Virus record (IMG/VR): IMGVR_UViG_2526164604_000026
Location: 1 to 19,040 of that record
Direction: 5' to 3' (one strand)
DNA length: 19,040 nt
DNA from: a virus
Taxonomy: Duplodnaviria > Heunggongvirae > Uroviricota > Caudoviricetes
Shown here: positions 15,001-18,000 of the stretch, one piece after another
Layout: the number at the start of each line of letters is the position of its first letter
How positions within the stretch are numbered: position 1 is the first letter of the stretch
Program-made: the position numbers

Positions 15001-18000
15001 TGGCACACTGACAGCTAATCAGTACGCACTGGCGCTGTACTGGCCGGTTTCTTCACTGCCTCAGGGCGTCACACTGGAAGGTAATGCCGGTCATAACCTG
15101 CTGGCGTCGTTTTACGTACAGAGCGATGCCACAGACCTTAATGTGATGTACCACAAGGGAAATGCTGGTCAGAACACGAAGCTGGGGTCATTCGGCGCAT
15201 TTGATAACGAATGGCATACGCTGGGCTTCCGTTTTGCCGGTAACAACAGTATTGAGGTGACGCCGGTCATTGATGGTAAGGACGGGACGCCGTTCATGCT
15301 GTCACAGTCACCGGTCGGCACGTTTACGGCAGACAAATTGCGCGTGACCGATATCACTAGCGGTGCGACATATCCGGTGCTGATTGAAAGTATAACAGTG
15401 GAAGTGAATAACCCGTAAGCAGGAAAAAAAGGCCGCCGGGGCAGGGAAAACAAGGAGCCAGAACCGGCGGCAAATGTCGTTATATCCAAAGCAAAACATG
15501 CAGGACACTTTTTTAACCAACAGGTATTAACGATGTCAACACCATATCAATAACCGGGAGGGATAATGAGATTTGTACAGCTTATTTTATTGTATTTCTG
15601 CACGGTGGTGTGCACGTTATATCTGGTAAGTGGCGGGTATAAGGTTATCCGGAACTATATACGCAAAAAGATTGATGCCGCGGCGGCGGAAAAAATCAGC
15701 GCCAGCCAGTCAGCCGGAACAAAACCCGAAGAGCCTCTCATTTCGTAGCAACTTTCTTAACAACACCTTTCAACGAGAAAATCCCATGTCAGAAATAAAA
15801 TCTCTGGTCACTGCTGAAGCAGTGAAGGACGTCCTGCGCTCTGAAGAAGTCAGAAGCGCACTGAAACAGCAACTCCGCCAGAATCTTGAGGCGCGTCTTG
15901 ATGCTGAAGTGGATGCCATTCTGGATGAGCTGCTGGGGGGACCGGCTGCTCCTGAGCCTGAAGACGGCGCGGGTGACAGTGCTGTTTCAGATGGCGTTGT
16001 GTCTCAGCCTGACGGTAGCAGTGAGCCTCAGCCTGGCGGCGAAATGATGATGTAACCATACGCAGGGGCTGTCGGTGTGAGCTGATGCCCCTCCTGTTGT
16101 TGTGAGCTTCCGGATTGCGGGAGACGGGGTATGTACCAGATGGAAAAAATCACAACGGGTGTGTCATACACCACGTCAGCGGTGGGGACGGGATACTGGT
16201 TACTGCAGCTGCTGGACAAAGTCTCTCCGTCCCAGTGGGTGGCGATAGGTGTGCTGGGGAGTCTGCTGTTTGGCCTGCTGACGTATCTGACTAACCTGTA
16301 TTTCAAAATCAGAGAGGACCGTCGTAAGGTGGCGCGGGGAGAGTAGTCGATGAATAAACAATACGAACTGGTTGTAAAATGAATATTTCTAACTGAAAAA
16401 ACGTTCCATGAGGTAAGAAAAGGTCACAGGCAATCAATAACAGGACGTGATGAAAGACCCTTGCATTTGTGCGCTTTCTCTTTAGATAGCAGCAGATACT
16501 GAAAATCTGAGTTGTCGGGGAGTCAGGGATACAGCTGTGCAAGAGTTGGTCATTGTGATTCCATTGAAATCCTGTATGCCATGAAGGGCAGGATTTTATG
16601 GCTACCTGAGCTTTGGTGATAGTAAGTTGAAAATTCGCATTTTTTGCTGACATGCGTAACGAGAATCCCATAAGCAGGGAGGACTTAATTCTTCATTAAC
16701 CCATGCGTTGATATTATGTTTCAGCCGTTGAAGCATCAGCGGTGTTAATGTTGTGGTAATAATATCCAGCGTTTTATGTGAGATCTTACCGTAAGGGTCT
16801 GCAAGAATGCTGCTTGTTGCTTCGTTATTATCTGCCATCAGAAGAAGTAACTCTGATTTAACGTTTTCTGTCATTAGTTGTAAAAATCTTCTGCGCAAAC
16901 TTTCTTTACTGTTCATTTATATGGCTTCATTTGTTGTAATCTGCTGCGTCTCAAGGGATATGTTTATGAGAGCGACCATGAGTGTTGGATTATATACCTA
17001 ACATATCAAGGGATTAGAAATCGATAAATCCCCATGAACGAAAAAATAAAATACGGCCTGTCGGCTGCCGTTCTGGCGCTGATTGGTGCAGGTGCTTCTG
17101 CGCCTGAAATCCTCGACCAGTTTCTGGATGAAAAGGAAGGTAACCACACCACGGCATACCGTGATGGTGCGGGGATCTGGACCATCTGCCGTGGTGCCAT
17201 TCTGGTGGATGGTAAGCCTGTTATTCCTGGCATGAAGCTGTCAAAGGAAAAATGCGACCGGGTTAATGCCATCGAACGTGACAAGGCGCTGGCATGGGTG
17301 GAGAAAAACATCCGGGTGCCGCTGACCGAACCCCAGAAAGCGGGGATCGAGTCATTCTGTCCGTACAACATTGGCCCCGGTAAGTGCTTCCCGTCGACGT
17401 TTTATAAACGAATTAATGCAGGCGATCGAAAAGGTGCCTGTGAGGCGATTCGCTGGTGGATTAAGGACGGTGGCAGAGACTGCCGTATCCGTTCAAATAA
17501 TTGCTACGGTCAGGTCTCACGGCGTGACCAGGAGAGCGCGCTGGCGTGCTGGGACATCGACAGATAGCAGAATATTTTCCTGAAAAATGACGTTGGCCAA
17601 CGCGGGTGGATAACACGAAATCCTGAAAACTGGTAAAACCTAAGTGAATAAAAGTAAAAACCCCGTTTGTTGGCAGCAAGCGGGGTTTTGTGTTTTCTGA
17701 CCTTGAGTAAGGCAAGGGAGAAATTATGGGTAGGGAGGTACTTTCCCTGTGAGGAAGTATAAAAGATTCTTTCTGAGGTTGTCCATTATGAAAGGCATTG
17801 AAGTGGAGACGCCAGCCAGTCTGGATTTAACAAGAGCGGCAGCTTTTGCCATTCGTATTGTGGCCATTGCTGTTCTGGTCTGGGCAATCCGTTGGTGGTG
17901 ATATGAACCGTGTTCTGTGTGTGGTTATCATTGTCCTGCTGGTGGCCTGTGGTGCGCTTAGTCTGGGGCTGAATCATTACCGTGATCACGCCATCATCTA

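Follow-up and report, generated by a model that had tools for sequence, protein, structure and literature searches.

The stretch of DNA analysed here, 19,040 nucleotides of a prophage assigned to the Caudoviricetes (positions 1 to 19,040 of IMG/VR record IMGVR_UViG_2526164604_000026), will be called the window. It represents the late region of an Escherichia coli lambdoid prophage. Our subject is the interval between its two lysis genes, the pinholin gene S and the endolysin gene R, and above all a small gene that lies in this interval on the opposite strand. The features with which the argument begins are these, in window positions:

16131-16346, plus strand: S21-type class II holin (pinholin, S), 71 amino acids, with a dual start M1/M4 (Pfam PF04971, E = 1.5e-32).
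16347-17033: gap from S to R, 687 nt, running exactly from stop to start.
16602-16916, minus strand: the small gene, 104 amino acids, 12.1 kDa, isoelectric point 9.3, belonging to PHROG_1853 and corresponding to Sakai ECs_1097 (RefSeq WP_000138558.1).
17034-17567, plus strand: R21-type signal-arrest-release (SAR) endolysin (R), 177 amino acids, intact (Pfam PF00959, E = 2.9e-23).

The initial annotation had pointed to an AT-rich gap with a minus-strand open reading frame (ORF) of 104 amino acids between pinholin and SAR endolysin, and had seen in it foreign DNA of low G+C content (GC) that breaks up the lysis cassette. Both observations hold. The 687-bp gap has a GC of 39.0%, against 54.2% for S and 54.1% for R. 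The endolysin bears a SAR-like stretch, YGLSAAVLALIGAGASA, at its N-terminus and is 89-95% identical to the endolysins of related phages; the holin is 94-96% identical to those of the Stx2 phages 86 and 12E129. The small gene diverges fastest in the region, with 46-78% identity between homologs. The ORF was said to carry no recognisable motif, and PHROG_1853, a family of unannotated function, is indeed the only one that it matches (E = 3.5e-47, 161 bits, residues 1-102).

Length alone would make this ORF only mildly unusual (one of at least 104 amino acids turned up in 81 of 2000 dinucleotide shuffles), and it is because of its conservation, not its length, that we take it to be a real gene. 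An in-frame stop immediately precedes M1. In RefSeq, the PGAP pipeline starts WP_000138558.1/ECs_1097 at M15, which gives a protein of 90 amino acids; M15 is not conserved, and homologs keep both the M1 start and a length of 104-106 amino acids. The pairwise ratio of nonsynonymous to synonymous substitution (dN/dS) is 0.14-0.38 in the 19 pairs with an estimable dS. An AlphaFold2 model of the protein (pLDDT 89.8, pTM 0.81) has five helices, and no hydrophobic, transmembrane or signal segment is present (maximum KD19 0.66). These results show that the small gene encodes a soluble, basic, five-helix protein of 12 kDa which evolved under purifying selection. The PHROG_1853 profile has 159 positions, of which the first 56 are without a counterpart in the 104-residue protein; probably they are due to ORF calls extended too far, as in P0025 and P0031 (numbers with P, L or H are our own labels).

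The family appears to be narrowly distributed. A word-seeded search returned 49 homolog clusters, every source-named one of them from E. coli, and an exhaustive HMMER search of 1.84 billion representatives returned 21. There was no homolog of the small protein among the 185,579 GTDB species representatives, and HMMER and pattern scans did not find the family beyond E. coli prophages.

A search of the protein against prophage proteins, proposed in the initial annotation, leads to phage 86, 12E129 and other E. coli prophages. Among phage genomes, tblastn finds only Stx2 phage 86 (orf6) and Stx2a phage 12E129, with 53% identity. Both phages have the homolog in the S-R interval, on the strand opposite to the lysis genes and convergent with a plus-strand gene, which we call the partner. 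The phage 86 partner, orf5, has 268 amino acids and joins a DUF1327/YdfR N-terminus to a C-domain of 147 amino acids; the 12E129 partner has 213, with a coiled-coil-like N-terminus and the same C-domain as orf5. Nearer relatives (64-78% identity) have the order S-partner-small gene-R, the 3' ends of the two convergent genes either overlapping or lying 8 nt apart. When IMG/VR loci encoding a homolog are considered, the small gene opposes S and/or R in 76 of 79 (26 with a partner and 50 without); in the other three, S is absent from the retrieved stretch.

The cassettes of phage 86 (orf5/orf6, AB255436) and 12E129 thus have the same slot and orientation as the window. Of an orf5-type partner the window holds a remnant, including the ydfR-like start; unlike in phage 86 and 12E129, its partner is a pseudogene, which takes up about 220 bp of the gap. 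The spacer sequence of this decayed region is confined to window-type loci. On the ground of these homologies the foreign DNA is shown to derive from a low-GC convergent cassette made of a plus-strand partner (185-296 amino acids) and the minus-strand small gene. An AlphaFold2 model of the partner had a pLDDT of only 49 and was not used. A second minus-strand ORF (16309-16671, 120 amino acids) was rejected as spurious: it has no homolog or family, and it overlaps the partner pseudogene and the 3' end of S in antisense orientation.

What did the cassette enter? The initial annotation held that S and R are normally adjacent. This is so in 933W-type phages (the distance is 4 nt in 933W and most Stx2a phages), while other loci have ydfR between S and R and no small gene. 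We set the boundaries of the foreign segment by a three-way alignment of the window with 933W and with L004, a locus of the S-ydfR-R kind. From this alignment, the ancestral layout of the window lineage is S-ydfR-R and not S-R. The comparison with relatives did delimit foreign DNA, at about 16383-16998; it was not inserted between a contiguous S and R, as had been supposed, and instead took the place of the body of ydfR, beginning with codon 11 and leaving the stop codon. The gap can therefore be divided, apart from the small gene, as follows:

16350-16382, plus strand: stub of a ydfR (DUF1327)-type gene, MNKQYELVVK*, 10 codons, placed by alignment with 933W and the S-ydfR-R locus; left edge of the replaced segment.
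16383-16601, plus strand: partner remnant (pseudogene), in which 16420-16551 matches the conserved C-domain, with in-frame stops, and 16560-16601 is homologous to the partner 3' end.
16917-16998, minus strand: leader and putative promoter of the small gene, with a perfect -10 sequence TATAAT (16994 to 16989) 72 nt ahead of the ATG and a weak Shine-Dalgarno (SD) sequence.
16999-17033, plus strand: ydfR stop codon (TAA, 16999-17001) and inherited ydfR-R spacer, the same as the L004 spacer (match H55) except for a 10-nt deletion.

The stub matches residues 1-12 of phage 86 orf5 by tblastn and shares its N-terminus with a 287-residue YdfR-partner fusion (P0125). Within the 3' end of the holin gene lies an SD-like sequence, GGGGAGAG (16336-16343), which serves the following gene in relatives; the stub in the window still has it ahead. 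On the right, homology with L004 restarts exactly at the ydfR stop codon and extends over the spacer between ydfR and R, catatcaagggattagaaatcgataaatcc. Neither direct nor inverted repeats flank the foreign segment, it has no transposon ends, and a transposon-like insertion was rejected for want of such repeats. In phage 86 (L002), CTGAAGA is present on either side of the cassette where this meets ydfR sequence. Since this repeat is itself ydfR sequence, it is consistent with recombination and not with transposition.

The initial annotation mentioned a small gene between holin and lysozyme in Qin, ydfR, with doubt as to its strand. The position was correct: ydfR lies between essQ and rrrQ in Qin, in the same slot between S and R, and the strand is that of the lysis genes. 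Of this gene the window retains the first 10 codons, the stop codon and the spacer that follows. YdfR is unrelated in sequence to the 104-residue protein, which lies on the opposite strand and matches no Pfam family, YdfR/DUF1327 (PF07041) included. Hence ydfR is the displaced resident of the slot and not the insert.

These boundaries bear directly on the start of the endolysin gene. Here GGGATT (17010-17015) and AATCCC (17027-17032) can pair around an 11-nt loop, 1 nt before the ATG at 17034, just as the initial annotation described, and its statement that R lacks a Shine-Dalgarno is equally exact (no GGAG-type SD lies within the preceding 20 nt). It might be thought that the insertion created a translational control element at this SD-less start, one that changes lysis timing. 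The 5' arm of the hairpin does overlap the only purine-rich stretch (AAGGGA), and the deletion of 10 nt (tgataaatat) that brings the hairpin to within 1 nt of the ATG is specific to the window lineage. Nevertheless, at -6.7 kcal/mol (z = -1.17) the hairpin is weak and was equalled by 20 of 200 shuffles, its arms are not complementary in L003, L005 and L008, and there is no covariation. Such stability and such pairing are not those of a structured translational operator. The SD-less start of R is common to every insert-bearing relative examined, including those without the 10-nt deletion, and the same spacer sequence occurs in loci that have ydfR only. Neither the hairpin nor the SD-less start can thus be regarded as a product of the insertion; since homology with L004 spans the ydfR-R spacer, the hairpin is inherited spacer. 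We see in it no sign of a function, and we consider a role as control element very unlikely.

The two genes of the cassette are separable. In L021 and L022 the small gene has no partner and is packed between S and R with 48 nt to spare. In L019 and L020 it stands, again without a partner, beside a different lysis cassette (holin_8, holin_3_7 and a GH108 endolysin), and in L012 and L014 it sits in decayed remnants. The partner occurs without the small gene, in the order S-partner-R, in EC4115 and P0125 loci. Divergence tells the same story: the partner C-domain of L008 is 81-82% identical to those of L002 and L003, whereas its small protein shares 46-51% identity with theirs and 65-66% with those of L005 and the window. 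The incongruence of the partner and small-gene trees, together with the occurrence of each gene alone, argues against an obligatory toxin-antitoxin-like pair.

One might still suppose that the small protein acts towards the partner as its antidote, immunity factor or regulator, and that as an orphan it guards against the partner proteins of co-resident lambdoid prophages. The tight linkage of the genes in many relatives, with their convergent 3' ends overlapping or nearly so, would fit this suggestion. So would the persistence of the small gene while the partner decays, and the fact that genomes of enterohaemorrhagic E. coli (EHEC) hold several related lysis cassettes, EC4115 having a partner-only locus. 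Yet either gene is common without the other, no co-evolving pairs are evident in the trees, and in many O157:H7 genomes (H174-H179, one place per record) the small ORF is present but nothing in the genome matches the partner. The pair is convergent and does not form an operon; the partner belongs to the late operon, where a toxin would be pointless. PADLOC, Pfam and toxin-antitoxin families gave no match, and in all these respects the pair differs from a type II toxin-antitoxin system. A guarding role is in our opinion quite improbable.

Several of these loci have further peculiarities. In L019 (2501-4323) and L020 (1608-3430) a small-gene homolog with 72% identity lies upstream of a prophage porin gene and is co-directional with it, both being opposed to the lysis cassette. 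The small gene of L021 and L022 is a 120-residue variant, and immediately upstream of the holin (3413-4204) these prophages have a gene for an Enterotoxin_a/Scabin-like ADP-ribosyltransferase. The lone partner of L024 (EC4115, 1494-2051) and L105 (1221-2084) has 185 amino acids or forms the 287-residue YdfR fusion, and ends 36 nt from the start of R; it would seem that at this junction a cassette of the phage 86 type has lost its small gene by deletion.

We now turn to how the small gene might be expressed. The TATAAT of its leader is conserved in the window and in L008, L012, L014 and L019, always 70-73 nt ahead of the ATG; L019 represents a different lysis-cassette context, and L005 has TACAAT. 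The leader contains an inverted repeat, TCTCA (16971 to 16967)-N13-TGAGA (16953 to 16949), which only the closer relatives keep. With almost no covariation in addition, we make no claim for it as an operator or hairpin. Phage-86-type copies are organized differently: instead of TATAAT and an inverted repeat they have a terminator-like hairpin, then a different promoter-like site and a strong SD. In phage 86 itself (L002, about 3880-3960) the hairpin upstream of orf6 is GCCAG-N10-CTGGC followed by TTTTT and is oriented with orf6.

Could it be the transcript, or transcription itself, that matters? An RNA antisense to S and head-on interference at the S-R junction might set lysis timing or curb leaky lysis, the ORF being secondary. 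The small gene opposes the lysis genes in every lysis-cassette context, the minus strand has no terminator between the ORF and S, and the conserved -10 adjoins the start of R. What speaks against this possibility is that purifying selection on the protein and a confident fold model indicate that the protein itself is maintained. In L019, moreover, the gene heads away from the lysis genes and towards the porin gene, so that antisense to S is not a constant feature. A Rfam scan of the insert gave no match at gathering score or at E <= 1, and a small RNA in the insert was rejected for that reason. We judge it rather unlikely that the RNA is what is functional.

The distribution of the interval has to be considered next. 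It is at least 99% identical in 623 records, and the window-type interval is found in 631 of 5426 complete E. coli genomes (about 12%), which among the matches listed are mostly EHEC of serotypes O157:H7, O111 and O103. Homologs of S or R are present in 3818 genomes. No deposited phage genome covers the S-insert-R interval of the window, the best coverage being 57%. Spans from S to R in a 60-row sample were 753 bp (adjacent), 1148 bp (with ydfR), 1581 bp and 1847 bp (with partner and small gene). The initial annotation had considered that the ORF might turn out to be a conserved lysis gene of the same module in most relatives. It is conserved in its slot, as the IMG/VR loci also indicate, though by the genome count in a minority of relatives, and it does not share the strand of the module. 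Its orientation in every lysis-cassette context and its lack of a hydrophobic segment do not suit an antiholin, spanin, releasin or similar lysis-cassette protein.

Two rearranged examples may be mentioned. In Sakai Sp4 (L016/L017, NC_002695.2 1182130-1186375) a segment with holin ECs_1100, ECs_1097, endolysin ECs_1096, Rz and pchA is inverted relative to the side with Q and the esterase gene, and is bordered by IS629. In PV15-279 the endolysin gene is interrupted by an IS3-family element.

Rearranged and IS-cut lysis regions of this kind raise the suspicion that the whole interval, ORF included, is functionless debris of a degrading cryptic prophage, the ORF having stayed intact through recent spread. 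A pseudogene partner, a ydfR stub and a 10-nt spacer deletion are marks of decay, frameshifted variants of the small gene do occur, and selection cannot be read from window-type copies that are nearly identical. On the other hand, the family-wide dN/dS is low, the -10 element has been kept, and in about 620 genomes the ORF has stayed intact over the same history in which the adjoining partner gained stops and deletions. For these reasons we find mere debris unlikely.

The explanation that we prefer, with a probability which we would put at slightly better than even (about 52%), is that the 687-bp interval is a mosaic scar and not a regulatory device, and that the small gene is an autonomous, probably lysogen-expressed moron. 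Its origin is shown by the comparisons: a lysis cassette of the S-ydfR-R type acquired the low-GC cassette of partner and small gene, and the partner decayed afterwards. The ydfR stub of 10 codons and the partner pseudogene were left behind, together with the small gene and its leader, which are intact, and the former spacer between ydfR and R. The small gene would be read from its own putative promoter (TATAAT, 16994 to 16989) against the Q-dependent late operon. It is predicted to be expressed in the lysogen and silenced by head-on late transcription upon induction, and its product may act in the cytoplasm, outside the lysis machinery. As there is no terminator after the small gene, its transcript probably extends antisense into the partner remnant and S, and could damp leaky holin expression as a by-product. 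Of the functions that such an arrangement might allow, one in the lysogenic phase seems the most plausible.

Lambdoid morons in the sense of Hendrix include bor and lom of lambda and the porin genes lc/nmpC of PA-2/DLP12. The small gene resembles them in that it is added between phage genes which lie next to each other in related phages, in its lower GC compared with the flanks, in its mosaic occurrence among prophages and in its apparent promoter. Like bor and nmpC it is oriented against the late operon, and one homolog lies directly upstream of a prophage porin gene. Unlike them, the window copy lacks its own terminator, encodes a soluble helical protein of the cytoplasm and not one of the envelope, and came in a two-gene cassette.

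Several points weigh against the gene being a moron of this kind. Its classical anatomy is incomplete: on the minus strand there is no intrinsic terminator from 16601 to S, and a hairpin after the stop is without a U tract. As to the promoter, the TATAAT is conserved, but the -35 is unconvincing (2-3 of 6 positions) and the site falls below the threshold of a standard promoter scan. The window-type copies are at least 99% identical, so that purifying selection holds for the family and not for the window copy, and sporadic variants of the small gene (P0001, P0013 and P0016) are frameshifted or deleted. Protein comparisons offer little help with function, as there was no match in Pfam, NCBIfam, PADLOC or PDB sequence profiles and Foldseek of the model against PDB and BFVD gave nothing at E < 1. 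Nor did searches of the literature on the small gene, ydfR and phage 86, or the text of the EHEC transcriptome papers that were checked, yield expression or function data. For now the gene is a hypothetical one, already annotated, within a mosaic region that is decaying; we regard it as an ordinary prophage add-on and not as a new mechanism.

A bolder suggestion is that the small gene, possibly with the whole cassette, is a lysogeny-phase module placed purposely at the S-R junction, whose protein or antisense transcript restrains holin and endolysin or excludes related superinfecting phages. We think this improbable. If correct, lysis timing and toxin release would be affected in those Stx2 phages with an intact cassette (such as phage 86 and 12E129), and the protein would stand for a fold family that is new and restricted to E. 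coli prophages. Whatever its role, what survives is a conserved orphan gene whose confidently modelled fold has no match. Intact cassettes belong to lysis modules of Stx2 phages, in which toxin release depends on lysis, so that a gene expressed in the lysogen and opposed to the late operon would be a reasonable knockout target there. The S21/R21 holin-endolysin junction itself emerges as a slot for variable cargo, of which at least five states exist: S next to R, ydfR in between, the partner by itself, the partner together with the small gene, and the small gene by itself.

The genes on either side of the lysis genes proper are:

13481-15418: SASA/NanS-p-type esterase gene.
15630-16055: DUF826 gene.
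17846-18370: Rz.

Between the endolysin stop and Rz, at 17650-17696, there is a strong terminator-like hairpin of 15 pairs, with an A-tract before and a T-tract after it. It lies within the late lysis operon, and read-through presumably depends on Q antitermination. ARAGORN detects no tRNA in the window, although Ile/Arg/Arg tRNA genes precede the esterase gene in the O111 and O157 relatives. Just upstream of the NanS-p-like esterase gene of the window, at 13174-13340 on the plus strand, is a match to the small RNA STnc100 (Rfam RF02076, 101.6 bits). Farther away, at 9377-9551 on the plus strand, the sok antitoxin RNA is matched (Rfam RF01794, 116.9 bits), and an O157 relative annotates hokD there; the match indicates a hok/sok type I toxin-antitoxin locus in the prophage.

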